Below, piece after piece: positions 3,471-40,820 of a DNA stretch of 64,000 bases. Under the pieces are notes generated by a model. The model was given only the letters and a program-made list of their open reading frames with translations, was not told where the DNA came from and made no database searches. Origin of the DNA: Lachnospiraceae bacterium (lineage in GTDB: Bacteria; Bacillota; Clostridia; Lachnospirales; Lachnospiraceae). Position numbers and translations under genes: made by a program. Location: contig SFDP01000024.1 in the NCBI GenBank assembly GCA_004558185.1, positions 9,362 to 73,361 on the forward strand, written 5' to 3'. Within the stretch, counting starts at the first letter, position 1. The number at the start of each line of letters is the position of its first letter.

Positions 3471-4799
3471 TTAAAGTTGGAAGGAAAAGCAGGCCGGTAC
3501 GATAATTAAGATCATTACCATCCCAAGCATCAGCATCATGGGAAGCAACAGCTTTGTTCCCGCCTCTTCTCCCTTTCGCTTAACCTGATTTTTTCTCTCT
3601 TCATTAGCCCGCCAGCTCTCCTGACGAAGAGTATCCAGTATGTTTGCCGCCCCCTTCTGTACAGTTTGTATTAACAGAGTGGACAGCTTCCGATAAAGGG
3701 GAAGACTGCATCGTCTGCCCAAAAGCTCATAGGCTTCGATTTCTCCCAGTCCATTCTCCATACGGCGGCAGATATAGCCCAGCTCCTCATACAAAAATTC
3801 TATTCTTTTTCCTTTCCCTCTTTTTTGTCTGTCATCCTGCACTATTCTGTATAATGCACCCTTCACTGTCATGCCTGCCTCCATAAGAAGAGTGAGCTTA
3901 CTGACGAATTCCGAATATTGAGCCTGTAAACACCTGTCCCGTTCCTGAGCCTGTTTATGTACCTCCTTGTCCTTTTCATACCAGACTGCTGCCAATACGA
4001 TAGGAAGAAAAAGGAAGAGGATAAACACTCCTTTTCCAGTAGGATAGCGCCAATTCAGCTCCTTTCCTCCCTCTGTCCGGGGCAGGAAAAGGAATTCCTC
4101 CTCTCTGCTCTCCCTTTCTTCAGCCTGAATACCTGCGGATAATCTTCGTAAAAAGGAATCCTCTGTTCCTTCCTCTTCATCTATAACACGGACAAAAAGA
4201 TGATGCTCCTGTTTCCATTCTCCATACTCCATGGTTACCGTAAGCTCAACGATCCCATCCTCTTGGGCCTGCCCATTTTCAGGAGTTTCTCCTTCCGGCT
4301 CCTTATCCCTTCGTATCCTTCCCTGGCTGTCCACCAGACTATTGTTGCTGCTTCTCCAGCTTAAGAGCAGTGGATAACCCTCTACTTCCTGGGGAAGATT
4401 CAGGTCCTTACTGATCTGGTCCACACTTTCGTTTTCTCCCAGGATAATTTGGGGCAGAGCATCTGCAAGCTGTTGGAAATATGACTCAACTTCCTCTTTA
4501 CTATACTCCTTCTCTCCCAGCGTAACGGTAATAGGCTGCCACGCCTCTTCCTCTCTTTGTACCTCTAAGGTCACTTCCTTCTTCCCTCTCCCATAGGGAT
4601 TACGCTCAATGGAATTTCCTTCTTCCAGTCTTCTTTGCTGAAAAGTCTGATAAGCCAGCAGACTCATCAGAATGCTTCCTGCCAAAAAGAGTAGCAGCAT
4701 ATCCTTTTTCTTTTTCTTATAATAATTTTCGATCAAAAGCTCTTGGTTCTGTCCCACATACAGTTTGGAAAAATCCTTTTCAATCTGTTTTTTTCCCAT
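3471..4799 (-). CDS. TadC-like T2SS-F family inner-membrane platform protein with a long N-terminal extension
   Basis: 442 aa. The C-terminal ~170 aa (LTLLMEAGMTVKGALYRI...IEAYELLGRRCSLPLYRKLSTLL...LLLPMMLMLGMVMILIIVPA) looks like a GspF/TadC domain. The N-terminal ~250 aa is an acidic, TM-anchored extension. Confidence 0.6.
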   Translation of the reverse strand: MGKKQIEKDFSKLYVGQNQELLIENYYKKKKKDMLLLFLAGSILMSLLAYQTFQQRRLEEGNSIERNPYGRGKKEVTLEVQREEEAWQPITVTLGEKEYSKEEVESYFQQLADALPQIILGENESVDQISKDLNLPQEVEGYPLLLSWRSSNNSLVDSQGRIRRDKEPEGETPENGQAQEDGIVELTVTMEYGEWKQEHHLFVRVIDEEEGTEDSFLRRLSAGIQAEERESREEEFLFLPRTEGGKELNWRYPTGKGVFILFLFLPIVLAAVWYEKDKEVHKQAQERDRCLQAQYSEFVSKLTLLMEAGMTVKGALYRIVQDDRQKRGKGKRIEFLYEELGYICRRMENGLGEIEAYELLGRRCSLPLYRKLSTLLIQTVQKGAANILDTLRQESWRANEERKNQVKRKGEEAGTKLLLPMMLMLGMVMILIIVPACFSFQL

Positions 4800-5615: not shown

Positions 5616-6845
5616 CTACGGATAGGAAATTCCTGCACTTTCCATTTTATAGCGGTTAATAAGCTGCCCAACGCTGACCAGACCTCCTTTGATTTTTTCT
5701 TCCTTTTCCTCTCCTGCTTCCTGAAAACGATATAATGGATTCAGTATGATCTGATCCCCCTTCATTCCTGAAATCTCTGTGATCTCCAGAACCTTCCTGG
5801 TTTTATCTCTAAGCCGTCCCAGATGAACGATCAAATCAATCCCCGAAGCAATCTGTCTTCGTATTGCACTTACCGGAAGCTCCACGCCCATAAGAATCAT
5901 CGTTTCCAGGCGAATCAGCATATCTGCTGCACTGTTTGCATGGGCAGTAGACATACTGCCGTCATGACCACAATTCATCGCACTGCCGATCATATCCAAT
6001 GCCTCTGCTCCCCGCACCTCCCCTACAATTATCCTGTCCGGTCTCATCCGCAGGCTGGCCTTGATCAAATCCCGAATAGTAATTACCTTTCCTCCTTCCA
6101 GATTTGCATTCCGGGTCTCCATGCGGATCAGATTCTCTACCGACCAGAGCTGCAGCTCTGCACTGTCTTCAATGGTAATTACCCGCTCATCAGCAGGAAT
6201 ATACTGAGATAAGGCATTCAGAAAGGTAGTTTTGCCGCTGCCCGTTCCTCCGCTCACCAATATGTTATATCTGGCCTTTACCGCCTTTTGCAAAAAGTAG
6301 ATTACCTCCTGACTTACAGCCCCATATTCCTTAAGCCTGTCCATGGTCATAGGAGATGCCGAAAAGCGGCGTATGGTCAGAATAGGCCCATTCAGCGCTA
6401 TCGGGTAAAGCACTACATTAACCCGGGAGCCACCGGGAAGCCTGGCATCCACTATGGGAGAAGCCTCATTAACCGTTCGATTGCAGCCTGCTACGATCTG
6501 CTGGATAACCTGCAATAGCTTTTCTCCTGATTCAAACTCAGTGGATAATCGTTTCATCCTTCCTCCCTGCTCAATAAAAATATGAGTCGGTCCATTCACC
6601 ATAATCTCCGTTACACTTTCATCCTCTAATAGCTCCTGCAGAACGTCTAGCTTCCTCAGGGAATAAAAGATCTCTTTCCCTATTCGTTTTCGCTCCTGCA
6701 AAGAAAAGCTGCTTCCCTCCTGCTTTCGCAGAAGATAATGGCTGATCAGCTCCTGAATCTGTTCATCGCTAAGCTCATCTCCAAATGCCATATCCTCCAT
6801 AATCTCCCGTCTGAGGCTGTTAATAAGGCTCTGTTTATCTCCCAT
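5616..6845 (-). CDS. cpaF: CpaF/TadA pilus-assembly secretion ATPase
   Basis: Walker A GGTGSGKTTFLNAL, ITIEDSAELQ, and the His box GHDGSMSTAHANS of VirB11/CpaF-type ATPases. Start set at MGDKQS (6845), overlapping the upstream gene by 11 nt. Confidence 0.9.
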   Translation of the reverse strand: MGDKQSLINSLRREIMEDMAFGDELSDEQIQELISHYLLRKQEGSSFSLQERKRIGKEIFYSLRKLDVLQELLEDESVTEIMVNGPTHIFIEQGGRMKRLSTEFESGEKLLQVIQQIVAGCNRTVNEASPIVDARLPGGSRVNVVLYPIALNGPILTIRRFSASPMTMDRLKEYGAVSQEVIYFLQKAVKARYNILVSGGTGSGKTTFLNALSQYIPADERVITIEDSAELQLWSVENLIRMETRNANLEGGKVITIRDLIKASLRMRPDRIIVGEVRGAEALDMIGSAMNCGHDGSMSTAHANSAADMLIRLETMILMGVELPVSAIRRQIASGIDLIVHLGRLRDKTRKVLEITEISGMKGDQIILNPLYRFQEAGEEKEEKIKGGLVSVGQLINRYKMESAGISYP

Positions 6846-10876: not shown

Positions 10877-13800
10877 TTATCCTTTTCTGATAAAAGCAAT
10901 AAATTCCTTTGCTATCTTGTATAAAAGTGCAGTATTGGGATTCTCTTCTCCTTCTCCCCGCTCCGGAGTGTTGATATTCAGATTTCTATTCTCTCCAAAG
11001 AATATTCCCTTCATCTGAATCTCCGTTTCCTTTAAGGCTTCTCCTATGGCTTCTGTAAGAACAGAAGACTGCTCCTGTAAAAGCTCCTTTTTGTCCATAT
11101 ACTCTGTCAAAACAGAGCCTTCCAGTACATTCTGGCTTACACTGAACCGGCCTTCTACCTTCCCCAGTCTCTCCGTGTCCAGAGTAATCTTTACCTCACC
11201 TCTGGTACTCCCACGATGAATAATGGTCAGATTAATAGAGGTCAGCTCTTCACCGATCTGTACCGGAATCTCATAGTTTTCCTCCCTGGCCAGGTCGGAG
11301 GCAAGATGCAACTGCTTATAAAGCTGCTGAATCCCCTTGATATCCACATAAGCGGCTTCGTCCCCCAGAGAAGAAACGGCATTCTCCAGTGCCTGCCCGG
11401 CTTCTTCGATAATCGACTGGTATTCTTCCTCTCTCTCCTCAGGCTGAACCTGATCCATTTTTTCCAGAAAGCCTTCTGCCTTTTCCAAAAATCCAAAGAC
11501 CTTTTTCTCCTGAGCAAGGCTTTCCTGCCGGGCCAGGAATTTCTCCTCCCATGTGCGAATGTTCCTGAAGGTCTTTCCCCTTTGGGTAGTGAGGACTCCC
11601 GCACTCTGTAAATTCTCGATGGTAACCGGCTGATGATAGGCCTTCAAATAATCTGCCTGAGCAGAGTCCTTTTCCAATGTCTGTCTGATTTCCTTCAGAT
11701 TTTCCTGTACGAACCCTTCTTCTGCCTGTTCATCCTCTATAATGGTTTCCACCTGCTGTGCCAACTGCTCCAGGCTCCTTGTATCGCCCAGACTTTTTCG
11801 AATGCTTGCAAATCCTTCCTCTATCTGCTCAGAGATGGAAGTCCCTTTTCTTTCCATCTCCTGTAATGCTCCTACCGAATCATCAACACGGATATCCGTA
11901 GGCTTTGCCTTTCGGCTTCTTACTGCCGACAGAAGATTGGAGAAATTCAGCTCTGCTCCCTGTGCAACCAGACTTCCGATTACTGCTCCGTCTGTTTTTT
12001 CAATTTGCCTAAGAAGACGGTAAATACCGATATAGGCCTTTCGCTCATCCTGAGTTATCTCTTTTTGCTGCTCAAGCTTATAGAGGAATTTGCTGTACTT
12101 TGCAGTATCCTCACCAAATTCTCCATCCTTAAGCCGGATATACTCCTCCAGCTCCTCCAGAGTCATCTCCATCGGATTCTTTCCCTGACGTATCATATCC
12201 AGAGTCAGCCCCGGTTTCATTCCTTCAATGACGGCCTGAACCTGTCTGTCTGCCTCCTGTACTTTGCGGAGATTTTCTTCGTTGATCTCCATCCGGTTAT
12301 AGCCCAGGATACGTATGGCTCTCCTGTTCTCATGAGTAAGAGCCAGATCCATATCCTGCAAAATATCATCCACATTACGAAAAGCCTTGCGGATACTGTC
12401 TCCCAGGTCTGCTCTGGGAGCCGTCATCAACGTTTCATAGCTTTCCTCTGCTGCCTGATACCGGCTTTGCAGCAGAAGTCCTTCCTGCCCTACCTGACTT
12501 AGTGTAGGTCTTTCCATAAAGGGAATCTTTCCCACCAATGCCAAAGGCATATGGGGCAATTCACCTATTTGCTGTAAAGTCTCCCGGTATAGCTCTCCTT
12601 TTCCTCCCTCTGCGGCAGCTCCAAAGAGGCTCTGTTCCCACTGCCTTCCGGCTTCATCCAGCCTGGCGATCAGTTCCTCCATGGGTGTTATATCAATGGA
12701 AAAGTCGGACTGCAGAAGCTTCAGATTAGCTTCTACCGTCATTTTCAGCCTTACCTCCTCCAGACCTTTTCGTGCCTGTACCTGCACAGCATAATTACCC
12801 TCTGTCTGGAAATAGCCTTCCATATTTTCCAAAGTAAGAGGAAGACCTGAGCCACCTGCATAATCTGCTGCCTCAGGGGGCAGGTCATGCAGCCGCTCAT
12901 AGATTTCTACAGCCCTGGCATATATGCTTTGGGGCTGTCCTGCCACAGGAATGTCCCATAGGTTTCTTCCTTCCGCCAGTGCCTGAGCCGCCTGGCCGAT
13001 AATCTCATCTTCCTTCAGGGGAAAGGTAAGGTTCTCGATATACTGAACCAACTCCATATTTTCGCTATTGATGGGGAGTCCTCTTTCCATCAGCCATTTG
13101 GCAGTGTCCATATTCCTGTCATCCGGTGCATAGCCACTGTCCTCAAGCCGCTGCTTGAGCTGTTCCTCCAACCCGGAAATATCCTCTTCCAGGGTCTGCG
13201 TTCTGCGAACATTCTGATAAGTTTCTCCCTGTCTGCCATAGCTTCCGGTGGTATATCCGCCTGTCTTACCATAATGAGCTATATCTACACTGCTGTAGCC
13301 AGCCTTGTAAAGGTTCCCCAGAGTAGGGGAAAGTCTCCCTGCTGCCAAATAGGAAACAGTCCCATCCTGCGGTTCTTTCAGGGCTTGTGCCTGCTGCCAG
13401 ATCTGATCAACCTGACGGATATTCTCCTCGGTAACTGGTGCATCAGCCTGTTTCAGGGCTCTGGCAATTTTATTGGCATAGGCTCTGCTGCCGGTAATCT
13501 GCTCCAGCTCCTCTCTGGATAAGCTGTCGTTATAGCCGGTAATCTCTGTTCCTGACTGTGCCAGCACCGTTTTAATCTTATCCAGAATAGTGACGGCTTC
13601 TTCCGGCTCCATGCGGTAGACATCAAAGCCCTCTTTATCCATTTCCAGAAAATCCTGGCCCGACATAGAATTAGACATTACTGCATTAAAGTTACGCTGC
13701 AGGAGCATAAAGCTTTCTACTCCTACCTCCTGTATAACCTCTTTGTTGAACCCTCCATGGTTGTCAAAGCTAAAGTTATCCGTAACTTTACCAGAAATGT

Positions 13801-13933
13801 CTAACACAGTCTGATGATTCAGAAAAGAACCTGCCGTTTTGTCTTGGTTCTGCACCCAGCTCTTTTGCTGGGCATATGTGGTTTTCGTCTGTTGAGTCTT
13901 TCCTTCATTCTGCCACTCAAAGCTAATTCTCAT
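10877..13933 (-). CDS. large acidic coiled-coil protein, flagellum-associated, with a possible FliK-like C-terminal domain
   Basis: 1018 aa from MRISFEW. No enzymatic motifs seen. The C-terminal ...KITLDTERLGKVEGRFSVSQNVLEGSVLTEYMDKKELLQEQSSVLTEAIGEAL resembles the Flg_hook/FliK C-domain pattern (L.PE.LG.v.v.f...). Ends 25 nt upstream of fliC. Confidence 0.5.
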   Translation of the reverse strand: MRISFEWQNEGKTQQTKTTYAQQKSWVQNQDKTAGSFLNHQTVLDISGKVTDNFSFDNHGGFNKEVIQEVGVESFMLLQRNFNAVMSNSMSGQDFLEMDKEGFDVYRMEPEEAVTILDKIKTVLAQSGTEITGYNDSLSREELEQITGSRAYANKIARALKQADAPVTEENIRQVDQIWQQAQALKEPQDGTVSYLAAGRLSPTLGNLYKAGYSSVDIAHYGKTGGYTTGSYGRQGETYQNVRRTQTLEEDISGLEEQLKQRLEDSGYAPDDRNMDTAKWLMERGLPINSENMELVQYIENLTFPLKEDEIIGQAAQALAEGRNLWDIPVAGQPQSIYARAVEIYERLHDLPPEAADYAGGSGLPLTLENMEGYFQTEGNYAVQVQARKGLEEVRLKMTVEANLKLLQSDFSIDITPMEELIARLDEAGRQWEQSLFGAAAEGGKGELYRETLQQIGELPHMPLALVGKIPFMERPTLSQVGQEGLLLQSRYQAAEESYETLMTAPRADLGDSIRKAFRNVDDILQDMDLALTHENRRAIRILGYNRMEINEENLRKVQEADRQVQAVIEGMKPGLTLDMIRQGKNPMEMTLEELEEYIRLKDGEFGEDTAKYSKFLYKLEQQKEITQDERKAYIGIYRLLRQIEKTDGAVIGSLVAQGAELNFSNLLSAVRSRKAKPTDIRVDDSVGALQEMERKGTSISEQIEEGFASIRKSLGDTRSLEQLAQQVETIIEDEQAEEGFVQENLKEIRQTLEKDSAQADYLKAYHQPVTIENLQSAGVLTTQRGKTFRNIRTWEEKFLARQESLAQEKKVFGFLEKAEGFLEKMDQVQPEEREEEYQSIIEEAGQALENAVSSLGDEAAYVDIKGIQQLYKQLHLASDLAREENYEIPVQIGEELTSINLTIIHRGSTRGEVKITLDTERLGKVEGRFSVSQNVLEGSVLTEYMDKKELLQEQSSVLTEAIGEALKETEIQMKGIFFGENRNLNINTPERGEGEENPNTALLYKIAKEFIAFIRKG

Positions 13934-14036
13934 ACGCTTAAATTCCTTATAAAAAAGAGTGAATATAAGCATGACTGAAAAATCTGCTGCTTACATTCAC
14001 TCTCTATTTCGGCTCTTTTAAAATGAAACTTAACCT

Positions 14037-15979: not shown

Positions 15980-18532
15980 CTACATGAAATCTTTTTCCCT
16001 CAAAATAACCATATCCTCTTCATCGTAGCGTTTCCCTAAAAGCAGGTCAAACAAATGTGCAAGATTCTTTTTATCTGCATGAGCAATGGCTTCATCCACC
16101 AGCTCTCTTACCTCTGCTACCGTAACGATATGGTCACTGGTCTGCCTGTCCTCAATCCTGGTCTGAAGAGCCAGCATACCCAATTCATCAATGGAATACT
16201 CCAGATGATAGGCATACTGCCTTCCATATGCCGCAAGTGCATCATTGTTCAGCTCCTCAATCTCTATACGGGCATTGAAGAAGCTCTCCATAGCAGGATA
16301 GGCTGCCAGCATACGTTTTATCGCCTTTTTATTATCCTCCAGAATAACCACGATTCCGGTCTGCTCCTGATTCAGGGCCTTCAACAGCTTCATCACTGCC
16401 TGGCTGTTCATTCCGCTGGCCTTCTCAATAATCAATCCGCCATTATTCAGCTTGGAAATAGTACTGTCTACATTTTTACTGTTCAGGGAAGCACCTGACA
16501 CCTTGGCAACCACTCCGGAAAAATTGGCATCGGTCATCTGAATATCCTTCATAATATTCTTGGCCAGCTTGACGGTTCCCGAAGCAGCCTCGCCGGATAC
16601 GATAACATTACCGGTATAAGCTGCCAGACTGATCATATCCAACGCTCTCATAAATCGTTTTCTGGCTCCCTTCGTCTGAATAAAGGGACCAAACAGGGTT
16701 CTCTCCTCATCGGTAAGATCACGCACAGTGTCCTGTTCCTCTTCTTCAGAAGGCTCTTCCACGGACTTTATCTGTTTCTCAGACAAGGTATCCTCCTGAG
16801 ACGTCTGGACAGCCGGCTCTTCTTCTATCTCCTCCAGCTCTTCTACTTCCGGCAGCTCCTCCACCTCAGCCAGCTTCTCTGCAGCGGATAGCTTCAATTC
16901 TTCTCCCCCAGCCTCTTCTTCTGACTGCTCCAGCGCTGCTGCCTGTTCTTCGGCCAAAAACGTTTCTCCCGGCGGCGTCTGGTTCTGTTCCTGGTACTGC
17001 CCGCCAGACAGGTTCTGCCCTTGTGCTAAACGTTGTTCTTCAACTATGCTTTGCTGCTCTGCACAAATCTGTTTGCTGCTGTCGGCCAGTTCTTCTTCCT
17101 TCTCCAACTGCTCCAGAATGCCATCTCTCACTTTTGCTTCAAACTCGCTGAACATACTGCCGGTCTGTGCCATAACCTTCTGGGTCAGTTCTGCTTTGCG
17201 CTTTTCCTCGTTCTCTTTTTTGGTTTTTTCCCATTCGATCAGAACATCTTCTATCTTCATCTGACCGGTGATCTGTTTTTCAAGCCTGGTCTCCTCCGGT
17301 ACCACCAGGCTGATCTGTCCATCATAATCCTGGGACAGGAAACCTGCCATTGGAGCCGGCACATCTTCCGTCAGGGGCTCTACTAAAGGTCGTTTCATAA
17401 TCTCCTTAATGGAGGGAATCTCCTTCGTTGCCTCCCCCGGAGGAAAATCGTTCTCCCTCTGCTGGGTTATCTTTTCTTTTCTTCCCGACGGCTGACCTTC
17501 TTCTGCAGGGGCTTCAGCCTCCGATTCCTTTTTGGGGGCATCTGCAGCCTCTTCCTTAAGGGGAGAGGTCAGCACTTCCGGCTTCAGCTCTCCTGCTATT
17601 TCTGCCGTGTTATCTTCAAAGAAAACCTCCTTTATCGTGCTGGGAGTATCATACATGGGAGCCATTATCTGACTGGTTACTGTTCCCGGGCCGCTTTCAG
17701 AGGTATCCGGCTTCTCCGCCTCTTCCGTCTTCGGTTCACCTGGACTGAGGACCTCTTTCATGCTTTCTGCCAGGGCTTTTTGAAGATTGATGGTATCATA
17801 CTGCCCCATTTTCATAGGCTGAACCTGAATCTCCAGCTCCTCTGCCTGCTCCTTCGGCACTTCTTCCTTTACTTTCCCGGTCACTGATTCCTGCTGTGGT
17901 GCATCAGTTGCTTTTTTTCCACCCATCAGATGCTCATAGCTGGCCTGCTGGGCAGGACTTAAGGGCTCATGAAGCATTTTCAGTTCCATGGCTTTTTTTA
18001 CATATCGGCCTTCGCTGAACCACAAAATAAGCTGATCACACTCTTCTACACATTTGGTCGTCAATCCAATTCGGTGGTAGAGATAGGCCAGTTCGTATCC
18101 CCACTTTTCCCTGTAATCACGTTTTTTCAATTCTTCCAATACGGCAATGCGCTCTTCCAGGCTTACCTCCTGAGCTTCATAGAGCTTATACTGCAATACG
18201 TATTTACCGTTATCCATCGGTGCCAGTTGTACAAACTCTTTGTAATATTCTATGGCCTGAACCACCTCGCCCATTTTTATACAAAGCTCACATAGAGAAT
18301 AAAGGATCATCCTCCCTCCGGGATGACGCTCATAAGCCATAAGCAACAGCTCTTTACTCTCCTTATAGCGGCGATTTACCTTATATAAATCGCTGACCGT
18401 ACACAGCATGGCAACGCTGCGTACTCTGGTCCAGTCAATCTCATCGGCGATCTTAACTGCCTTACGAAACTCCCTTCTGGAAATCAGAGCCTTAATTTCT
18501 TCTGCTTTCAATTTATATTCCTGCTTATCCAA
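15980..18532 (-). CDS. TPR-repeat protein with an acidic linker and a degenerate SpoVK/CbbX-like AAA+ C-terminal domain
   Basis: 850 aa with an N-terminal ~190 aa of TPR-like helices and an E/P/K-rich middle. The C-terminus aligns by eye to SpoVK-type AAA modules, but its Walker A reads GEAASGT and the DEAY box reads GGLIIEKASG. Confidence 0.6.
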   Translation of the reverse strand: MDKQEYKLKAEEIKALISRREFRKAVKIADEIDWTRVRSVAMLCTVSDLYKVNRRYKESKELLLMAYERHPGGRMILYSLCELCIKMGEVVQAIEYYKEFVQLAPMDNGKYVLQYKLYEAQEVSLEERIAVLEELKKRDYREKWGYELAYLYHRIGLTTKCVEECDQLILWFSEGRYVKKAMELKMLHEPLSPAQQASYEHLMGGKKATDAPQQESVTGKVKEEVPKEQAEELEIQVQPMKMGQYDTINLQKALAESMKEVLSPGEPKTEEAEKPDTSESGPGTVTSQIMAPMYDTPSTIKEVFFEDNTAEIAGELKPEVLTSPLKEEAADAPKKESEAEAPAEEGQPSGRKEKITQQRENDFPPGEATKEIPSIKEIMKRPLVEPLTEDVPAPMAGFLSQDYDGQISLVVPEETRLEKQITGQMKIEDVLIEWEKTKKENEEKRKAELTQKVMAQTGSMFSEFEAKVRDGILEQLEKEEELADSSKQICAEQQSIVEEQRLAQGQNLSGGQYQEQNQTPPGETFLAEEQAAALEQSEEEAGGEELKLSAAEKLAEVEELPEVEELEEIEEEPAVQTSQEDTLSEKQIKSVEEPSEEEEQDTVRDLTDEERTLFGPFIQTKGARKRFMRALDMISLAAYTGNVIVSGEAASGTVKLAKNIMKDIQMTDANFSGVVAKVSGASLNSKNVDSTISKLNNGGLIIEKASGMNSQAVMKLLKALNQEQTGIVVILEDNKKAIKRMLAAYPAMESFFNARIEIEELNNDALAAYGRQYAYHLEYSIDELGMLALQTRIEDRQTSDHIVTVAEVRELVDEAIAHADKKNLAHLFDLLLGKRYDEEDMVILREKDFM

Positions 18533-18823
18533 AACAGCACCTCAACGTTCGTCTATATTTTGTATACAGTAACCCACTTTTAATCTTATTTAGTGTATCA
18601 CAGCCCTTATGAAAATACAAGGAAGATATGCGTTTGTTACTCCTATCTTCCCTATTCCCTATTAGCTTGCCGATTAGCTTTTAAAATTATTCCTCTGTCC
18701 CTGCGTTAATAGACAGGCAGGAATGAGACTATTGACACAGGCCGCTTTACTATGCTATTTTCAAGACAATAACTGATATTTTTCTTATTTTTGTTTACGT
18801 ATACAGAAGAAAGGAGGTCTCCT

Positions 18824-19387
18824 ATGTCACTTATTAATAAGGAAATAAATGATTTTTCCGTACAGGCTTTTATGAACAACAGCTTTGACACCGTATGCAA
18901 GTCAGATATTATTGGAAAATGGAGTGTTTTTTTCTTTTACCCCGCAGATTTTTCCTTTGTCTGTCCTACTGAATTAGAGGATTTAGCCAATATGTATGAC
19001 CGGTTTAAGGCCATTGGCTGCGAAATCTATTCCATATCTGCAGACACTCATTTTGTACATAAGGCATGGCACGATGCCTCTGAAAGGGTAAGCAAAATTC
19101 AATACCCTATGCTGGCTGACCCTACCCATGCTCTGGCCAGGGATTTTGATGTCCTCGTGGAAAGCAGAGGCGTAGCCGAACGGGGAACCTTCATTATTAA
19201 TCCGGAGGGAAAGATTGTAGCCTATGAAATTAACTCCGGTAATGTGGGCCGTAATGCAGAAGAGCTTTTGCGGAAGGTACAGGCCTGTCAATTCGTCTAT
19301 GAGCATGGTGATGAGGTATGTCCGGCCAAATGGCAGCCGGGTGCCCCTACGCTGAAGCCCAGTCTGGATCTTGTAGGCTTATTATAG
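18824..19387 (+). CDS. ahpC: peroxiredoxin AhpC (typical 2-Cys)
   Basis: RBS GAAAGGAGG. FFFYPADFSFVCPTEL holds the peroxidatic Cys and EVCPAKW the resolving Cys. Confidence 0.92.
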   Translation: MSLINKEINDFSVQAFMNNSFDTVCKSDIIGKWSVFFFYPADFSFVCPTELEDLANMYDRFKAIGCEIYSISADTHFVHKAWHDASERVSKIQYPMLADPTHALARDFDVLVESRGVAERGTFIINPEGKIVAYEINSGNVGRNAEELLRKVQACQFVYEHGDEVCPAKWQPGAPTLKPSLDLVGLL

Positions 19388-19396
19388 AATGGTCGG

Positions 19397-20089
19397 ATGA
19401 CCGGGAGGTGGATTTTGGAACACACTAAAGATGATAACGGCGGCTTTTTTTTGGATCAGCAGATGCAGAGGGAACTGAGACAGGTGTTTAAAAAACTGAA
19501 TAAAAAGGTAATTCTTACCGCTATTTTAGAGAAGAATTCATCCAAATCTTCTGAAATGACACAGTTATTGAACGAAATTGCCGAATTAAGTGATTTTATT
19601 GAGGTTAACTGTATTACTGCCGGCTGTTCTCCTGATTTAGAAGAGCTGATGGATTGTGACGGCCACTTTCCTGCTTTAGGCATTTTCGATGGCCAGATGC
19701 AGTTTAGCGGTCTGTCCTATCTGGGTATTCCCGGGGGAAAAGAGATCAACTCCCTGGTGTACGGTCTGTATAATGTTGCAGGCCCTGGGCAAACGATCAG
19801 TGGGAAGAATAAAAAACGGTTGGCAAAGATCATTTCACCTCATCGGATCAAGGTCTGTGTTTCGCTGGCTTGTCATCACTGCTGTAATACCGTAATTGCC
19901 AGCCAGCTATTAAGTGCCCAAAATCCTTATCTTTCTTCACAGATGATAGATGCTGCTCTTTTTCCCGATATCGTTGAGAAATATAAGCTGGAGCGTGTTC
20001 CCTTACTTATTCTCGATGATACTGCCTTTCTCTGGGGAGAAAAGGGGATTGAGGATATCCTTTCTCTGCTGGAAAACAGTATAAGCTGA
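19397..20089 (+). CDS. stand-alone AhpF N-terminal-domain-like thioredoxin-fold protein
   Basis: About 225 aa. ELRQVFKKLNKKVILTAIL...EMTQLLNEIAELSDFIEV resembles the AhpF NTD, and SLACHHC supplies its CxxC. No FAD/NAD reductase part follows. The likely real start is the TTG at 19415 (GGGAGG-6 nt-TTG). Confidence 0.6.
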   Translation: MTGRWILEHTKDDNGGFFLDQQMQRELRQVFKKLNKKVILTAILEKNSSKSSEMTQLLNEIAELSDFIEVNCITAGCSPDLEELMDCDGHFPALGIFDGQMQFSGLSYLGIPGGKEINSLVYGLYNVAGPGQTISGKNKKRLAKIISPHRIKVCVSLACHHCCNTVIASQLLSAQNPYLSSQMIDAALFPDIVEKYKLERVPLLILDDTAFLWGEKGIEDILSLLENSIS

Positions 20090-20093
20090 CTTC

Positions 20094-20131
20094 AAAAGGG
20101 GATATGTGGCATGGTACACATATCCCCTTTT
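20094..20131. terminator. bidirectional rho-independent terminator
   Basis: AAAAGGGGATATGTG-8 nt loop-CACATATCCCCTTTT, with A/T runs on both sides. Lies between the convergent ahpF-NTD gene and the Cys-repeat peptide gene. Confidence 0.8.
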
Positions 20132-20206
20132 ATTATGTATCAATTAACTGAACTCCTATGTGAAAGCTATTGTCTATGGTGCCGCTTGAAAAGCATGGAG
20201 TTTAGT

Positions 20207-20389
20207 TTATTCTTCTGTGCAGTTCATATTTTGCAGACTGCAGGCCTTTTCCTCCCTGTCTATACAGTTCATATCCGTCAGCCCACAGTTCTTATCCTCT
20301 CCGCCTACACAATTCATATCGGTAAAGGCACAGGTTTTGTCACTATCTGACATCCCATTCATGTTCGTTATCCCCAGCTTTTTCTTCAT
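20207..20389 (-). CDS. small Cys-repeat peptide (three 15-aa C-x6-C modules), candidate RiPP precursor or metal-binding peptide
   Basis: 60 aa. Strong RBS (AAGGAGG-5 nt-ATG), and the start lies 14 nt after the DUF1667 stop. Followed by the terminator at 20094..20131. Modules: SDSDKTCAFTDMNCV / GGEDKNCGLTDMNCI / DREEKACSLQNMNCT. Confidence 0.5.
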   Translation of the reverse strand: MKKKLGITNMNGMSDSDKTCAFTDMNCVGGEDKNCGLTDMNCIDREEKACSLQNMNCTEE

Positions 20390-20403
20390 GACTTACCTCC
20401 TTC

Positions 20404-20769
20404 TTAATCTACATTCGCCGTTGCCACAACCGCTACGCCGGTTCCTGCTGCATCCGGAAGAATGGTATCTCCTACCCGGACAGGAGTAACCGCTTCAACT
20501 TCCTTTAGCCTACGAACCACATCAAAAATTTTCTCCTTGGGAATATCTTTTGCGGTCTTACAGGGAACCTGACCCTTTTCTCTCCCTTTTATCCTTACCG
20601 TAGTGGTTACCATGCGGGCAGGTTCGGTCACTTCTTTTCTTGCGTAGTTCTCTCCTCTCGGACAGGTGTTTCCGCTAACCCCTATCCGCTCACCATCTAT
20701 GTTTACCTCCAGCATACACCCCAGGGGACAGATAATACAAGTCAAATCTCTTTTTTCCATAGACTTCAC
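20404..20769 (-). CDS. DUF1667 domain protein (third subunit of the clostridial G3P dehydrogenase triad)
   Basis: 121 aa. CIICPLGC...GNTCPRGENYARKEVTEPARMVTTTV is the DUF1667 pattern. 4-nt overlap with the upstream oxidoreductase gene. Confidence 0.7.
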   Translation of the reverse strand: MKSMEKRDLTCIICPLGCMLEVNIDGERIGVSGNTCPRGENYARKEVTEPARMVTTTVRIKGREKGQVPCKTAKDIPKEKIFDVVRRLKEVEAVTPVRVGDTILPDAAGTGVAVVATANVD

Positions 20770-22031
20770 TCCTTTTCAATTTTTATCGTGATTTCTGTCA
20801 AAGTCGGAAGCTCCAATAATTTTTCTTTTGAAAGCCTAATTTCCTCCATCTCTCCGGGAGCTGCCACAGGCCGCTTTTTCCGCAGAATACATTGACCCGA
20901 AAGGTACACACAGATGAAGCAGTTTTTGTATACTCTGTCCACCCGAAACCGTATCGTAAGGACATCATCCATATTCGATAAACGAATGCAGCCGGGCACC
21001 GTATAGCGTATACCATCTTCAGGAATCAGTCTGACTTCCTCTTCCTTCCTCCTTTCCATTTTCCCTTCAACATAGCGTGCCGCATTTCTTCCTGCCAGCA
21101 ACGCCTCCTGGGAAACAAAATCCACCAAATCATGAACGTGCAGTACATTTCCACAGGCAAATACCCCTTCAATACTGGTTTCCAGGCTTTCGTTGACCCT
21201 TGCCCCATTGGTGGCCTTTTCCATTTCTATTCCCATTCCCAGAGACAGCTCATTCTCCGGGATAAGCCCTACCGACAAAAGGAGCGTATCACAGGGAATA
21301 TACTCCTCTGTTCCCGGAATAGGCCTTTTCCTTTCATCCACCTGTGCCAGAGTCACCCCCTTCAAACGCTCTCTGCCGTCGATATCCACTACCGTATGAC
21401 TGAGCTTTAAGGGTATCCCATAGTCCTCAAGACACTGCACAATATTTCTTTTCAGTCCACCGGAGTAGGGCATCAATTCTGCCACAGCCTTTACCTTTGC
21501 CCCCTCCAATGTCATCCTTCTTGCCATAATCAGCCCGATATCTCCTGATCCCAGAATCACTACCTCCCTCCCGGGAAGATAGCCTTCCATATTGACTAAC
21601 CGTTGTGCGGTTCCGGCAGAAAAGATTCCTGCCGGCCGATAGCCGGGAATATTGAGGGCTCCTCTTGGCCTCTCCCGACAGCCCATAGCCAGAATGACCG
21701 CCTTTGCCTGAATTTCGAACACTCCCAGGGTGCAGTTCATAGCCGTCACCTTTTTATCCGGGGATATTTCCATAACCATGGTATTAAGCATATATTCAAT
21801 ACCCAGCTCATTCACCCGGTCAATAAACCGTATGGCATACTCCGGCCCTGTCAGTTCCTCCTTAAACGTGTGGAGCCCAAATCCATTATGGATACACTGA
21901 TTCAGTATCCCCCCCAGTTGATTATCCCTTTCCAAAATCAAGATGCTGTCACTTCCGTTTTCTTTTGCACCTACTGCGGCTGCAAGACCGGCGGGGCCGC
22001 CGCCGACAATCACAATATCGTATTTTTTCAC
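20766..22031 (-). CDS. NAD(P)/FAD-dependent pyridine-nucleotide-disulfide-type oxidoreductase
   Basis: 421 aa with two Rossmann dinucleotide motifs, IVIVGGGPAGLAAA and VVILGSGDIGLIMA, plus ACGNV near the C-terminal third. glp operon context. Confidence 0.8.
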   Translation of the reverse strand: MKKYDIVIVGGGPAGLAAAVGAKENGSDSILILERDNQLGGILNQCIHNGFGLHTFKEELTGPEYAIRFIDRVNELGIEYMLNTMVMEISPDKKVTAMNCTLGVFEIQAKAVILAMGCRERPRGALNIPGYRPAGIFSAGTAQRLVNMEGYLPGREVVILGSGDIGLIMARRMTLEGAKVKAVAELMPYSGGLKRNIVQCLEDYGIPLKLSHTVVDIDGRERLKGVTLAQVDERKRPIPGTEEYIPCDTLLLSVGLIPENELSLGMGIEMEKATNGARVNESLETSIEGVFACGNVLHVHDLVDFVSQEALLAGRNAARYVEGKMERRKEEEVRLIPEDGIRYTVPGCIRLSNMDDVLTIRFRVDRVYKNCFICVYLSGQCILRKKRPVAAPGEMEEIRLSKEKLLELPTLTEITIKIEKE

Positions 22032-22046
22032 GAAAATCCCCCTTTC

Positions 22047-23507
22047 CTATAACCGATCTTTATTTCTTCCAACGATTACCAGGGATTCTTTTCCCATCTT
22101 GGTAAGCTCCGACTCCTCTGTTTCAAGCTGTCTTGCAAGTATCTCCATAACCCTTGGTAAGCAAAAGCCGGACTGGCATCTCCCCATTCCTGCCCGTGTT
22201 CTTCGTTTAATCCCATCCAGTGATCTGGCTCCCAGGGGGCGATTTATGGCATCCAGAATTTCTCCCTCTGTCACCATCTCACATCTGCAGATTATATTGC
22301 CATATTCCGGATGTTTTTGAATTAATTGCTTTCTCTCCTCCCCGGTCAGGCTTTCCGGCATAAGAATTCCCTTGCGCCGGGCCACAAAATCCTCCTTTTT
22401 TTCCGGGTCGATTTTTTTTCTGAGAATATCCGCTATCATTTCTCCAATAGCAGGAGCGCTGCTTAACCCCGGTGACTCTATCCCTGCACAGTCAATGAAC
22501 CCCTCAGCATCCTCTGCCTCTTCAATAATAAACTCATGCCCCTTTTCATGTGCCCTGAGTCCTGCAAAGGAGGTAATTACCTGACTCATGGGTATATTTT
22601 TCACGTTCAACTGAGCCTTCGAAATCACCTCTGACAGACCTTCCCGGGTAGTAGCAACATTTTCCTTGTCAGTAATATCCGTTGCCGTAGGGCCAAGCAG
22701 AAGATTACCATGTATGGTAGGGGTGACCAGTATTCCTTTTCCGTATTTTCCAGGCAGGGAAAAAATCACCTGCTTAACTTGCTTTCCCGCACACTTATCC
22801 AGCAGACAGTATTCTCCTTTTCTGGGCGTAATACAGATTTTATTTTTGCTGACCATATTATGGATTTTATCCGCATATACACCTGCCGCATTCACCACAT
22901 AGCCGGTTCGGCAGCTTCCCTTATTGGTGTTGATCGTAAATCCCTTCTTCTCTTTTACTATTCCGGTCACTTCTGTATTAAATTGAAATTCCACTCCGTT
23001 GACAAAAGCATTTTCCGCAAGTGCAAAGGTCAGGCCAAAGGGACACACTATTCCCGCTGTAGGTGCATACAGTGCTGCCACCACATCCTCTGACAGCTCA
23101 GGCTCCATTTGGGTAAGTCTTTTTCCTTCTATAATCTCCAGGCCTTTCACTCCGTTTTTTATCCCCCGCTCATAGAGCTCTCGGAGTTTGGGCATATCCT
23201 CTTTGCTCCTTGACACAACTAACGATCCAATTCTTTTAAAGGGAAAATCCAGCTCCTCTGCCAGCTCCTCCATCATTTCATTTCCCCGTACATTCAGCCT
23301 GGCCATCAATGAACCATTGGCAGCATCATAGCCCGCATGAATAATGGCACTGTTTGCTTTTGTGGTTCCGGTGCAAACATCTTCCTCCTTTTCCAGCACC
23401 AATACCTTTAATTTGTATCTGGAAAGCTCTCTTGCCGTGGCTGCACCGCAAACACCGGCACCAATAATGACTACATCGTACATATCCTCTTTCTCCTCTT
23501 TGCTCAA
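22047..23507 (-). CDS. glpA: FAD-dependent glycerol-3-phosphate dehydrogenase/oxidase with a BFD-like [2Fe-2S] domain
   Basis: 486 aa with the FAD motif VVIIGAGVCGAATAREL. The C-terminal CRCEMVTEGEI...GMGRCQSGFC is a BFD-like Cys cluster. Sits between glpF and the oxidoreductase/DUF1667 pair. Confidence 0.8.
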   Translation of the reverse strand: MSKEEKEDMYDVVIIGAGVCGAATARELSRYKLKVLVLEKEEDVCTGTTKANSAIIHAGYDAANGSLMARLNVRGNEMMEELAEELDFPFKRIGSLVVSRSKEDMPKLRELYERGIKNGVKGLEIIEGKRLTQMEPELSEDVVAALYAPTAGIVCPFGLTFALAENAFVNGVEFQFNTEVTGIVKEKKGFTINTNKGSCRTGYVVNAAGVYADKIHNMVSKNKICITPRKGEYCLLDKCAGKQVKQVIFSLPGKYGKGILVTPTIHGNLLLGPTATDITDKENVATTREGLSEVISKAQLNVKNIPMSQVITSFAGLRAHEKGHEFIIEEAEDAEGFIDCAGIESPGLSSAPAIGEMIADILRKKIDPEKKEDFVARRKGILMPESLTGEERKQLIQKHPEYGNIICRCEMVTEGEILDAINRPLGARSLDGIKRRTRAGMGRCQSGFCLPRVMEILARQLETEESELTKMGKESLVIVGRNKDRL

Positions 23508-23610
23508 AGAGAGGCTAATCCCAACATTATCCTGTTGTCTGATCAGCCTCCTCTCTCATCCTTTATTCCTTTTTTCTAAAACATGACTTAATTTGTCGTG
23601 CCGCCCCCAT

Positions 23611-24321
23611 TTACCAGGGAATTGCGCCATATAAAAGCACTGCTGCCGCAGCACCTATTATGGGACCAACCAAAGGTACGATTCCGTATCCCCAGTTAGA
23701 ATCTCCCTTTGCCTGAATAGGCAGAAGCGTATGAGCCAGCCGGGGTCCAAGATCACGGGCGGGATTCAAGGCATAACCGGTCAGTCCGCCTAAAGACATA
23801 CCGATGGATACGATAATTCCAAAAACCAGAAAATTGCTCAAACCTACTGCAATGCCATCCACCTGTGCAATGCCCTTAATGGCAAACACCAATACAAAGG
23901 TGGCAATAGCTTCACTGACGATGTTTCTGGGCAAATTAGGAATGGCTGGACCTGTAGAAAATACGCCAAGCTTTGTTCCTGCATCCATGGTTGCATCAAA
24001 CTGATCCTTAAACAGGATATAAACCAGACAGGCTCCTACAAATGCGCCTGCAAACTGTGCAACAATGTATCCGGGAACCATTTCCCAGCCGATGCTTCTG
24101 TCTATGGCAAGAGCCAGAGTAAGCGCCGGGTTAAAATGGGCTCCTGATGCAGCTCCAAAAATATAAGCAGGAATCATAACCGCAAGTCCCCACGCCAGAG
24201 TGATTTGAATGGAACCTGCACCCTTCATTCCTGATTTATTCAGGGTAACGTTGGCCACTACTCCATCACCCAACAGGATAAGAATCATCGTTCCCAAAAA
24301 TTCTCCAATATATGGCAGCAT
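23611..24321 (-). CDS. glpF: glycerol uptake facilitator (aquaglyceroporin)
   Basis: Two NPA boxes (HFNPALT, LNPARDLG). Start at MLPYIG with RBS GGGAGG; the ORF-track start at 24369 would overlap glpK. Confidence 0.92.
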   Translation of the reverse strand: MLPYIGEFLGTMILILLGDGVVANVTLNKSGMKGAGSIQITLAWGLAVMIPAYIFGAASGAHFNPALTLALAIDRSIGWEMVPGYIVAQFAGAFVGACLVYILFKDQFDATMDAGTKLGVFSTGPAIPNLPRNIVSEAIATFVLVFAIKGIAQVDGIAVGLSNFLVFGIIVSIGMSLGGLTGYALNPARDLGPRLAHTLLPIQAKGDSNWGYGIVPLVGPIIGAAAAVLLYGAIPW

Positions 24322-24340
24322 AAGCAATCCTCCCTTCGTT

Positions 24341-25855
<1,515 letters not shown>

Positions 25856-25890
25856 TTATATTTTGTGTTATCCTCTAAGATAACCGCATC

Positions 25891-26457
25891 TCACATTTTC
25901 CATACTTCCCTGCTGGTGGTGGACACCGACGTGGCTCCGGCGGCAAGGGCAGTCATTACATCCTCCTTATCGGAAATCAGCCCACCTGCAATGATCGGAC
26001 TCTTAATGCTTTTTCGCAGTCTCCTGATGACCTTTGGCATCACCCCGGGGAGAACCTCTACAAAATCCGGTCGAAAATGATAGGTTTGTGTTTTTAGAGT
26101 CTCCAGAGCCATGGAGTCAATGAGAAAGACTCGCAAGACAGTGTGCATTTTAAGCTCCATAGCCCGTTTGAGCAGTGTCGGCTTTGTACTGATAATTCCA
26201 TCTGCTCCCGTTTCCTTTTTAATAAAATCCACTGCAATTTCTTTCGTTCCCAAGCCTGTTATCAGGTCGATATGTACCATGGCTATACGGCCCGAGTCCT
26301 TAATTCTTTTAACAATATCCCTGATGCTGCAAACATCTCCAAACAGGATAAACACTACCTTTATTTCTTCCTCCTGACAGCAGTGGTCAATGCTTTCCAT
26401 ATCCTTTACTGCTGCAATAATCGGATTATCCTCTACAATTTCATAAAAATTGTACAT
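25891..26457 (-). CDS. glpP: glycerol-3-phosphate-responsive antiterminator GlpP
   Basis: 188 aa from MYNFYEIVEDNPIIAAVKD (RBS GGAGGG-4 nt-ATG; the ORF-track start is 26469). ...AGGLISDKEDVMTALAAGATSVSTT at the C-terminus is typical of the GlpP family. First gene of the glp operon. Confidence 0.8.
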   Translation of the reverse strand: MYNFYEIVEDNPIIAAVKDMESIDHCCQEEEIKVVFILFGDVCSIRDIVKRIKDSGRIAMVHIDLITGLGTKEIAVDFIKKETGADGIISTKPTLLKRAMELKMHTVLRVFLIDSMALETLKTQTYHFRPDFVEVLPGVMPKVIRRLRKSIKSPIIAGGLISDKEDVMTALAAGATSVSTTSREVWKM

Positions 26458-26606
26458 ATGTCCCTCCATTGACTTTCTTTCCTGCCCGAATCGTCATACT
26501 GCTTTAAGAATCATCAATAAAAACAAACAAAAAAGCATATCTAACACGCCACTTTTATGGCGGTTTTATATGCTCTCTCATCTCAATCCATTCTTCAGTT
26601 ATTGAC

Positions 26607-38370: not shown

Positions 38371-39213
38371 TCATATCATGACTATTTTTCTATATCCCTT
38401 CGCCCTGATCAGTTCCGCCAGCTCCTCTAAAAAATCCGGTGAGGGAATCTGATAGCCTGAATACTCCTTTCGAACGCCCATCGGCCGGTAGGCAATGAGC
38501 TTTATTCTTATGTCCTCTCTTGCTTTGCAGTCTGAAAGCAAGTCAGCAATGTGGCTCACACTCTCTCTTGCATCATACAAGTCCTGTACAACTACCACAC
38601 GTATCTCTTCCAGCTTACCCTCTGCCAAAAGAAAACGTACATTTTCCAACACCGTTTCATTGGAGAATCCCGTAATCCTTTCATGATCTGTCCGGTCAAA
38701 GGCTTTTATGTCCAGCATTACCCCGTCTGTTACCCGCAGCAGCTCCGGGTACTGACAAAAGGGAATAGTTCCGTTACTGTCAATCAGGGTTCCCAGGCCA
38801 GCCTGCGCAGCAAGAGTAAACAATTCGAGCAGAAACTCAGGATAGAGCATACATTCTCCTCCGGAAACGGTTACTCCGCGAATAAAGGGAATCTGATGCT
38901 TTACCACTTCGTATACCTCTTTTGCCGTCATTTCTCTTACCTTGGGTGAACTGCTGTGTGGGCAGACCCTGATGCAGGTATCGCAAAGCAGACATTTTTC
39001 CGAATGAAAATTTACTTTTTTATTCCTGTCAAATGTCAGGGCTTTGGCAGGACACTGGCTTACACAAATACCGCAGTTTTCACAAACCACCCTGGTTTCC
39101 GGATTATGGCAGTATTTACAGTTAAGGTTACAGCCCTGTAAAAATACGGCTGTTCGGTTACCCGGTCCATCTACGCTGCTAAAGGGAATGATCCGATTTA
39201 CTATAGCCTTCAT
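38371..39213 (-). CDS. yjjW: glycyl-radical enzyme activating protein (radical SAM, YjjW-like)
   Basis: GPGNRTAVFLQGCNLNCKYCHNPE (CX3CX2C), plus two ferredoxin-type clusters CENCGICVSQCP and CLLCDTCIRVCP. The start codon overlaps the GRE stop (ATGA). Confidence 0.85.
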   Translation of the reverse strand: MKAIVNRIIPFSSVDGPGNRTAVFLQGCNLNCKYCHNPETRVVCENCGICVSQCPAKALTFDRNKKVNFHSEKCLLCDTCIRVCPHSSSPKVREMTAKEVYEVVKHQIPFIRGVTVSGGECMLYPEFLLELFTLAAQAGLGTLIDSNGTIPFCQYPELLRVTDGVMLDIKAFDRTDHERITGFSNETVLENVRFLLAEGKLEEIRVVVVQDLYDARESVSHIADLLSDCKAREDIRIKLIAYRPMGVRKEYSGYQIPSPDFLEELAELIRAKGYRKIVMI

Positions 39214-40757: not shown

Positions 40758-40820
40758 CCTTACCTCCCATACCGGCATCCTTTTACCATCATTCTTTATC
40801 CCGTTTATTTGGAAATCTGT

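Follow-up and report, generated by a model that had tools for sequence, protein, structure and literature searches.

SCIFF peptides (TIGR03973) are small peptides of the clostridial class with six Cys, and each, as far as is known, always adjoins its own radical S-adenosylmethionine (radical-SAM) maturase. Rubredoxin together with NADH:rubredoxin oxidoreductase belongs to the O2/H2O2 defence of anaerobes, and the known AhpC/AhpF-type systems are built from three components, namely a flavoprotein reductase, a redoxin and a peroxiredoxin. Ranthipeptide precursors (PapA/freyrasin and the NxxC type) are small and carry tandem modules with Cys and Asp/Asn at C-x3-D, a spacing at which PapB introduces the crosslinks of freyrasin (PMC9413430). 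Glycerol-3-phosphate dehydrogenases (G3PDHs) of the GlpTk type assemble with NOX and DUF1667/MOX into soluble complexes, and electron transfer is mediated by proteins whose genes lie downstream of those for G3PDH (PMC11962113). Here we describe a gene for a 60-aa 'DMNC-repeat' peptide, located at the end of a glycerol operon in a 64-kb stretch of DNA from a Lachnospiraceae bacterium (contig SFDP01000024.1; the whole stretch is called the window hereafter). The product is very probably a genuine small protein that is conserved and has a functional tie to its gene neighbourhood, and not a clustered ribosomally synthesised and post-translationally modified peptide (RiPP). The reading that we rank first, with a probability of roughly 0.4, is that it assists a glycerol-oxidation/peroxide-detoxification unit as a thiol-based redox accessory, by a specific dithiol/disulfide mechanism. 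It resembles small Cys-rich redox/metal accessories in kind, and its repeat architecture and genomic niche are new.

The peptide gene, its modules and its expression signals are the following:

20207..20389, minus strand: 'DMNC-repeat' peptide gene including the stop codon, 60 aa; supported by translation, homologues and purifying selection.
20351..20389, minus strand: module 0 (aa 1-13, MKKKLGITNMNGM), Cys-less and degenerate, aligning with the Cys modules in DNA and protein.
20306..20350, minus strand: module 1 (SDSDKTCAFTDMNCV) with a C-x6-C pair.
20261..20305, minus strand: module 2 (GGEDKNCGLTDMNCI) with a C-x6-C pair, of which both Cys are gone in about half of the family.
20210..20260, minus strand: module 3 and tail (DREEKACSLQNMNCTEE), carrying a C-x6-C pair in which neither Cys varies across the family alignments.
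20396..20402, minus strand: Shine-Dalgarno sequence AAGGAGG, 6 nt 5′ of the peptide ATG, within the 14-nt gap after the DUF1667 stop.
20094..20131, both strands: bidirectional intrinsic terminator with a 15-pair stem and T-runs on both sides, common to the glp-peptide operon (minus) and the ahpC-trxL operon (plus).

The translation of the open reading frame (ORF) is MKKKLGITNMNGMSDSDKTCAFTDMNCVGGEDKNCGLTDMNCIDREEKACSLQNMNCTEE followed by the stop codon, exactly as given in the original prediction, and TCAFTDMNCVGGEDK is one of its tryptic peptides. The sequence also confirmed the predicted distance of 14 nt between the TAA of DUF1667 and the peptide ATG, and a spacing of 12-14 nt is seen again in three loci of relatives (L001, L015 and L022). 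The strong AAGGAGG ribosome-binding site (RBS) stands as predicted, but it is separated from the ATG by 6 nt and not by the claimed 5 nt. The strong bidirectional terminator is present, and the peptide gene is the genuine last cistron of the glp operon in the window, whose genes, confirmed by Pfam and NCBIfam, follow one another on the minus strand in the order glpP-glpK-glpF, the DAO/BFD G3PDH, Pyr_redox_2, DUF1667 and the peptide.

The ORF is a real small-protein gene under purifying selection. A genome scan recovered an orthologue with 78 % identity and identical synteny in a Lachnospiraceae metagenome-assembled genome (L001), and the DNA similarity between the window and this genome runs through the ORF and collapses immediately past the stop codon. 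The differences between the two sequences at codon positions 1/2/3 number 9/8/27. Nei-Gojobori counts covered 13 pairs, but one of these (L003-L004) is nearly identical and carries no information. The 12 informative pairs gave proportions of synonymous differences (pS) of 0.52-1.03 vs. proportions of nonsynonymous differences (pN) of 0.08-0.32, and in most of them the synonymous sites are saturated or close to it. The RBS, start and stop are retained in every relative compared, and the protein is conserved in relatives that keep the flanking genes, a point on which the original prediction had made its claim depend. The contrary explanation, that the ORF is spurious and that a 45-nt periodic element works as DNA or RNA (operator repeats or a 3′UTR structure), could draw on the shortness of the ORF and on the peptide alone finding no match in a word-indexed protein search. 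It conflicts with the concentration of substitutions at third codon positions under synonymous saturation with the amino acids kept, with the retained RBS, start and stop, with the end of conservation at the stop codon, and with the weakness of the DNA repeat. A search of the peptide region against Rfam returned no match, and only the terminator had a sub-threshold match to DapZ. The repeats are not kept as DNA or RNA irrespective of frame, and a non-coding role is for all practical purposes excluded.

The three 15-aa C-x6-C modules described in the original prediction are real. The coding motif of [DN]-M-N-C, RAYATGAAYTGY, occurs four times in the window vs. 0.25 times expected, none of 100 shuffles reaches four, and three of the four occurrences lie inside the peptide ORF, in phase and with a spacing of 45 nt. 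While this 45-nt phase holds, the imperfect tandem repeats claimed for the DNA do not amount to an array. The repeated DNA within the ORF is limited to a core of 10-13 nt, Tandem Repeats Finder reported no array at the peptide ORF in the window and the MAFFT alignment of the four module DNAs has a mean column identity of 69 %, so the repeat is mainly a feature of the protein. Across the family there are four modules, with a period of usually about 16 residues. The consensus of the Cys modules is D-D-D-[KT]-T-C-[GAS]-[LI]-[NT]-D-M-N-C-[LV]-G-E and that of the Cys-less modules is K-x-[LFY]-[GS]-[IL]-T-[ND]-M-N-[GA]-[IVM]-[TS]-x-D. The N-terminus, which had been regarded as leader-like, reads K-K-L-G-I-T-N-M-N-G-M in parallel to K-x-C-G-L-T-D-M-N-C-V of the Cys modules; it is a degenerate Cys-less module copy, and the peptide therefore consists of four modules and not of a leader plus three.

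We determined architectures and Cys counts on 163 full-length family representatives. Writing o for a Cys-less module, the architecture o-C-o-C is present in 89 and the window type o-C-C-C in 57, together 146/163. Both Cys at module positions 1 and 8 are present in 382 modules, neither in 263 and a single one in only 2, and this both-or-neither pattern indicates that the two Cys of one module act together. In total, 92 members have four Cys and 59 have six, at least four are kept in 159/163, and Cys outside positions 1 and 8 are almost absent. The best-kept module positions are Asn7, Met6, [DN]5 (D 87 % and N 12 % in the Cys modules) and the hydrophobic residue 3; Asn7 is invariant across all modules, Met6 is nearly so, and both exceed Cys in conservation. 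In alignment columns of the peptide, C50, N56 and C57 are invariant in 3/3 family alignments and M55 in 2/3. Conservation is even along the peptide, without a leader/core division. The median net charge in the family is about -9, and neither a signal peptide nor a hydrophobic segment is present. AlphaFold2, run with alignments of 48 and 122 sequences, predicts no autonomous fold for the peptide (pLDDT 62 and 66, pTM 0.18 and 0.19, no secondary structure).

Two unusual loci illustrate the variation of the modules. L020 contains two paralogous peptide genes in one glycerol locus, one (3794-4069) encoding a 91-aa, five-module paralogue with 8 Cys between glpF and dhaK, the other (6389-6595) a 68-aa paralogue after dhaM and convergent with the DUF1667 triad. 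P0032 (L033 2872-3099) consists of Cys-less modules only, with YSYTDMNGVSGD present three times, and is divergent from glpP-dhaKL, from which it follows that the module can persist without a Cys pair.

Judged by homology searches, the peptide founds an undescribed small-protein family restricted to Lachnospiraceae. The family was recovered only by exhaustive HMMER, six-frame contig scans and profile search. Exhaustive phmmer over 1.84 billion representatives returned 48 matches, two of them spurious: the long matches P0023 and P0033 turned out to be low-complexity repeats and were discarded. A profile built from 28 members matched 344 clusters (90 % identity) at E ≤ 1e-3, every one of which is unnamed or annotated as 'hypothetical protein' and none of which has a Pfam domain. 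The taxa named among the profile matches are Lachnospiraceae, Pseudobutyrivibrio, Brotaphodocola and 'Clostridiales', the cultured carriers are Lachnospiraceae bacterium A2 (C810_03010) and JLR.KK009, and one family member appears in 854 blocks of the assembly collection. No family was assigned when the peptide was scanned against Pfam and NCBIfam (for NCBIfam, hmmscan listed 0 families at E ≤ 1), a profile search of PDB sequences returned a chance match only (E = 0.7), and a full-text search of 7.7 million papers and 0.34 million preprints for the module motif found nothing relevant. Likewise, nothing on the DMNC-repeat family turned up in a literature search on small proteins rich in Cys that are encoded close to ahpC or glycerol genes. 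Some Logan 'proteins' (P0024, P0042, P0043 and P0028) are assembly artefacts that end in translated tails of sequencing adapters (SLIHISEPTRPY, VSYTHLDVYKRQ, GRASCRERV), and such chimeras inflate the apparent length variation of the family. P0025 is a one-off fusion to a fragment of a binding protein; no true domain fusion was found among the phmmer matches.

For the genomic neighbourhoods, we compared 15 distinct contexts with flanks of up to 10 kb per side. In the following list, triad denotes the G3PDH/NOX/DUF1667 genes, pep the peptide gene and TrxL the CHHC redoxin:

Window and L001: ahpC and trxL forward, then pep, DUF1667, NOX, G3PDH, glpF, glpK and glpP in reverse.
L002, L011 and L025: (ahpC), trxL, glpP, glpK, glpF, G3PDH, NOX, DUF1667 and pep forward, dhaKLM next; L025 without AhpC.
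L015 and L022: G3PDH, NOX, DUF1667 and pep forward.
L020: glpPKF, the pep paralogue, dhaKLM forward, pep forward, triad in reverse.
L027: triad, glpF, glpK, tetR, trxL and ahpC in reverse, then pep forward, glpP in reverse and dhaKLM forward.
L008: glpF and ahpC forward, then pep.
L003/L031, L006 and L029: ahpC/trxL divergent from pep, flanks without a glp gene.
L017: triad 6.6 kb upstream of pep.
L033 (Cys-less variant): dhaKL and glpP in reverse, then pep forward.

Two gene sets, one for glycerol use and the other for AhpC/TrxL, show linkage to the peptide. Glycerol genes are present in 12/15 contexts and AhpC and/or TrxL in 10/15, in addition to a short contig (L005). Each of the 15 contexts has one set or both and none has neither. 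The whole set of glp, ahpC/trxL and peptide genes forms one block in the window, L001, L002, L011 and L027. The peptide gene stands immediately downstream in the triad operon in the window, L001, L002, L011, L015, L022 and L025, and directly after DUF1667 in eight contexts, with gaps of 5-48 nt, mostly 12-48 nt. The orientation of AhpC/TrxL to the peptide varies between divergent, co-directional (tandem) and convergent, and the three loci without a glp gene within the flanks (L003, L006 and L029) have ahpC/trxL alongside. The question raised by the original prediction, whether the peptide always follows DUF1667/glp genes or co-occurs with SPASM genes, is answered by glycerol genes in 12/15 and SPASM in 0/15 contexts. 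The synteny agrees with its suggestion that the peptide is a redox or metal accessory to the G3PDH/oxidoreductase/DUF1667 triad. It had left the convergent AhpC/TrxL neighbours (18791-20089) unlinked, although these accompany the family as constantly as the glp genes do.

Stand-alone peptide genes have promoter-like sequences and strong RBSs, and terminator-like hairpins follow most of those examined. A search for a common operator upstream of nine stand-alone copies found only recurring -10/-35-like words, no better than in shuffles. By eye, AT-rich palindromes can be seen upstream in L006, L017 and L020. In A2 and JLR.KK009 (L031/L032 7817-9676) an insertion sequence (IS) transposase (DDE_Tnp_1, 619 aa) lies between ahpC and the peptide gene, and this insertion may have uncoupled the peptide gene from a shared divergent promoter region.

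The genes that surround the peptide gene in the window are these:

18791..19387, plus strand: AhpC, a 2-Cys peroxiredoxin (TIGR03137, 294 bits, cutoff 272), with the likely ATG at 18824.
19397..20089, plus strand: TrxL, a redoxin of double thioredoxin fold similar to the AhpF N-terminal domain and PDO, with a CHHC site; convergent with the peptide gene.
20404..20769, minus strand: DUF1667 ('MOX') subunit gene (Pfam PF07892, E = 2.4e-29).
20766..22031, minus strand: Pyr_redox_2 flavoprotein ('NOX' subunit; Pfam and NCBIfam), with a conserved single Cys46 and without a conserved CxxC.
22047..23507, minus strand: FAD-dependent G3P dehydrogenase/oxidase-like subunit of the GlpTk type, with DAO and BFD-like [2Fe-2S] domains (PMC11962113).
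23611..26469, minus strand: glpF, glpK and glpP (MIP channel, glycerol kinase and G3P-responsive antiterminator; Pfam).

The profile scores of TrxL (181 bits for the C-terminal half of TIGR03143, 112 bits for TIGR02187 (PDO) and 104 bits for AhpF residues 2-198) show its homology both to protein disulfide oxidoreductases (PDO) and to the N-terminal domain by which AhpF reduces AhpC, and its motif VSLxCHHC is invariant in 7/7 sequences. In the NOX subunit of the window and its relatives (alignment A7), a lone Cys within GGILNQCIHNGFG, close to the FAD site, is invariant, a feature reminiscent of the single-Cys NADH oxidase and CoA-disulfide reductase enzymes. We also considered NOX as a CxxC disulfide reductase for the peptide and dropped this idea, as the C-terminal C-F-I-C-x8-C of the window protein is lineage-specific and not conserved in the relatives. 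As an observation independent of the peptide, ahpC and/or trxL are repeatedly joined with glpP-K-F-G3PDH-NOX-DUF1667 (and dhaKLM), in L002, L011, L025, L027 and at 18791-26469 in the window, and these recurring blocks suggest that glycerol oxidation is coupled to peroxide handling in these anaerobes. Just upstream of ahpC, at 10877-13972 and 15980-18532 on the minus strand, two large proteins are encoded, one of 1031 aa with DUF6240 only and the other of 850 aa with marginal TPR and VRR-NUC matches.

The role of a thiol-based redox accessory is favoured by the strict coupling of Cys within modules (382/263/2), by the twin linkage to glycerol genes (12/15) and AhpC/TrxL (10/15), and by the neighbouring TrxL with its invariant CHHC site and its homology to the AhpF N-terminal domain and PDO. 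In the mechanism that we envisage, each Cys pair would alternate between the dithiol and an intramodule disulfide. The peptide would swap reducing equivalents both with TrxL (CHHC) and AhpC and, at its other end of the relay, with the soluble G3PDH/NOX/DUF1667 complex, and H2O2 made or met in glycerol catabolism would thereby be reduced. The cytoplasmic location, the dithiol/disulfide chemistry, the identity of the partners and the direction of electron flow are what we infer from these data. A bolder version of the scheme, which we regard as a long shot, would make the peptide a regenerable, gene-encoded multi-dithiol carrier, with 2-3 redox-active Cys pairs per 60-70 residues, that serves specifically as electron shuttle in a 'G3P:peroxide oxidoreductase' chain from G3P through GlpTk/NOX/DUF1667, the peptide, the CHHC redoxin and AhpC to H2O2. 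Lachnospiraceae, in common with most Clostridia, have neither glutathione nor bacillithiol.

Several observations speak against the thiol-redox role, for which gene context and sequence are the grounds. C-x6-C differs from the classical redox motif CxxC, and with NOX lacking a conserved CxxC the operon offers no obvious disulfide reductase for the peptide. Asn7 and Met6 are kept better than Cys, the Cys-less module 0 is nearly universal, and P0032, without any Cys pair, still stands in a glycerol locus; together these indicate that the modules do something besides thiol chemistry. AlphaFold2 yields no fold, and the co-location of glp and ahpC could come from a link of their own (the H2O2 of G3P oxidation), the peptide being tied to one of them only. 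The presence of at least two Cys modules in essentially all full-length members suits a Cys4 metal site at least equally, and the corresponding alternative is a metal-thiolate protein, in which two Cys-pair modules surround one metal and the peptide acts as a rubredoxin-like one-electron carrier or as a metallochaperone for the triad complex. Such a protein, which we consider unlikely, would account for the loss of Cys in pairs only with 4 or 6 Cys left in full-length members, for the commonest architecture o-C-o-C, whose pseudo-twofold duplication recalls the Cys4 knuckle proteins, and for the predicted disorder, which is expected if metal is needed for folding. It would also agree with a small, very acidic peptide being encoded beside a Pyr_redox_2 flavoprotein, the enzyme family to which the NADH:rubredoxin oxidoreductases belong, and with the [2Fe-2S] and Cys-rich domains of the triad complex itself. 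The peptide nevertheless lacks CxxC/CPxC knuckles, an aromatic core and any sequence match in Pfam, NCBIfam or PDB, its 6-Cys members and the Cys-free P0032 misfit a single Cys4 site, and the linkage to AhpC/TrxL favours thiol-disulfide over metal chemistry. The high conservation of Asn7, Met6, [DN]5 and the hydrophobic residue 3, rather than of Cys, is what would be expected of a multivalent docking or regulatory protein, whose modules would be a short linear motif [LI]-x-[DN]-M-N for an oligomeric partner, with the AhpC decamer, GlpK and the G3PDH complex as candidates. Its Cys pairs would then only serve to tune binding, as a redox switch or staple, e.g. throttling glycerol oxidation as peroxide rises. 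Four motifs with acidic linkers and no predicted fold are typical of a disordered multivalent binder, the motif is retained in Cys-less modules and in the fully Cys-less P0032 of a glpP-dhaKL locus, and stand-alone copies have promoter-like sequences and terminators of their own. On the other hand, at least four Cys in 159/163 members argue that Cys are central and not accessory, no fusion protein was found among the phmmer matches, and the nine stand-alone copies share no upstream operator or regulatory signature. We hold this explanation to be as doubtful as the metal site.

The RiPP arm of the original prediction is disfavoured, and that the peptide is an orphan ranthipeptide precursor, whose Cys would each be crosslinked, by a radical-SAM/SPASM enzyme encoded elsewhere in the genome, with the Asp/Asn in the same module (C-x3-[DN] and/or [DN]-x2-C), seems to us quite improbable. 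The crosslink-type motif that had suggested it is indeed there: every Cys module has C-x3-D/N, the spacing crosslinked by PapB in freyrasin (PMC9413430), as well as [DN]-x-x-C, and the Cys modules stand in tandem as in PapA. However, a SPASM or other peptide-maturase radical-SAM enzyme, a leader peptidase or a consistently linked exporter was found in none of the 15 contexts nor in the 64-kb window, which extends to the relatives the predicted lack of a maturase, protease or exporter next to the peptide. The absence of radical-SAM/SPASM genes, together with a uniformly conserved peptide whose N-terminus is a module copy, so that there is no leader/core split, is the reason why we disfavour a RiPP. 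Moreover, each module has two Cys yet one central acceptor, the reversed orientation D-x3-C is not processed by PapB (PMC9413430), and no NCBIfam model of SCIFF or another precursor matched. The gene lies 12-14 nt behind that of an enzyme subunit, with conserved linkage to primary-metabolism/redox genes, and the conservation of Asn7/Met6 above Cys is not predicted by a pure crosslink-site reading. The radical-SAM genes met were a HemW-like gene 8.5 kb off in one locus and, as the sole one in the window, the activase of a glycyl-radical enzyme (GRE) at 38371-39213, whose predicted nature was confirmed. It is of YjjW type (TIGR04041, 370 bits) and forms a pair, at 38371-40778 on the minus strand, with a YjjI-like GRE of 521 aa (PF11230, E = 1e-225). 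Flanking this pair are the genes of an ABC ATPase and of a binding protein of Bmp/PnrA type. For genome mining, the lesson is one of caution, as tandem C-x3-D peptides are not necessarily RiPP precursors.

Set against the systems described at the outset, the thiol-redox accessory has several partial counterparts. From the ranthipeptide precursors it differs by the lack of a SPASM maturase, a RiPP recognition element-type leader, a protease and an exporter in any of the 15 contexts, by two co-varying Cys per module, by its metabolic-redox operons and by conserved Cys-less modules. With SCIFF the six-Cys members share the small size and the clostridial class, but the motif and the repeat structure are other, NCBIfam gave no match at E ≤ 1 and the DMNC-repeat family is not adjacent to a radical-SAM maturase. 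Rubredoxin is closer in its length of about 55-60 aa, strong acidity, two Cys pairs about 25 residues apart, Pyr_redox_2 neighbour and association with peroxide detoxification; unlike it, the peptide has C-x6-C loops in place of CxxC(G) knuckles, six Cys in some members, and no aromatic core, homology or predicted fold in common. Bacterial metallothioneins and other small Cys-rich metal binders are also small and disordered without ligand, whereas the peptide has 7-10 % Cys, always in C-x6-C and never in CxC, CC or CxxC, is strongly acidic and has no metal-homeostasis genes nearby. A relation to thioredoxin-fold proteins is not indicated, since the 60-aa peptide contains no CxxC and matched no Trx family in Pfam. 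Like AhpC/AhpF and PDO-type peroxiredoxin systems, the locus encodes a bona fide AhpC and an AhpF N-terminal domain/PDO-like CHHC redoxin, to whose relay the peptide would add an extra thiol component; a repeat-peptide component is not described for such systems, and the literature search for the motif was empty. Its position directly after G3PDH-NOX-DUF1667 is shared with the downstream G3PDH accessories (GlpB/C, SdhBCD-like, CoxG, NOX/MOX; PMC11962113), although the peptide is far smaller and is also found beside ahpC without the triad. The triad itself is present in Thermococcales, Thermotoga and C. perfringens as well, while the named peptide carriers are all Lachnospiraceae.

The DMNC-repeat peptides thus represent a conserved, abundant and wholly unannotated family, placed where glycerol catabolism meets peroxide defence in the Lachnospiraceae, which are a dominant group of the gut. 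Most Clostridia lack glutathione, bacillithiol and mycothiol (PMC10880999), and two questions become testable with this family: whether they have other thiol systems, and what accepts the electrons of the soluble GlpTk-NOX-DUF1667 G3PDH in anaerobes. As the cultured isolates A2 and JLR.KK009 carry the gene, experiments are feasible. If the multi-dithiol carrier is true, it would supply the missing physiological acceptor of the soluble anaerobic G3PDH complex and would represent a low-molecular-weight thiol system of a new kind, in which the thiol is made on the ribosome.

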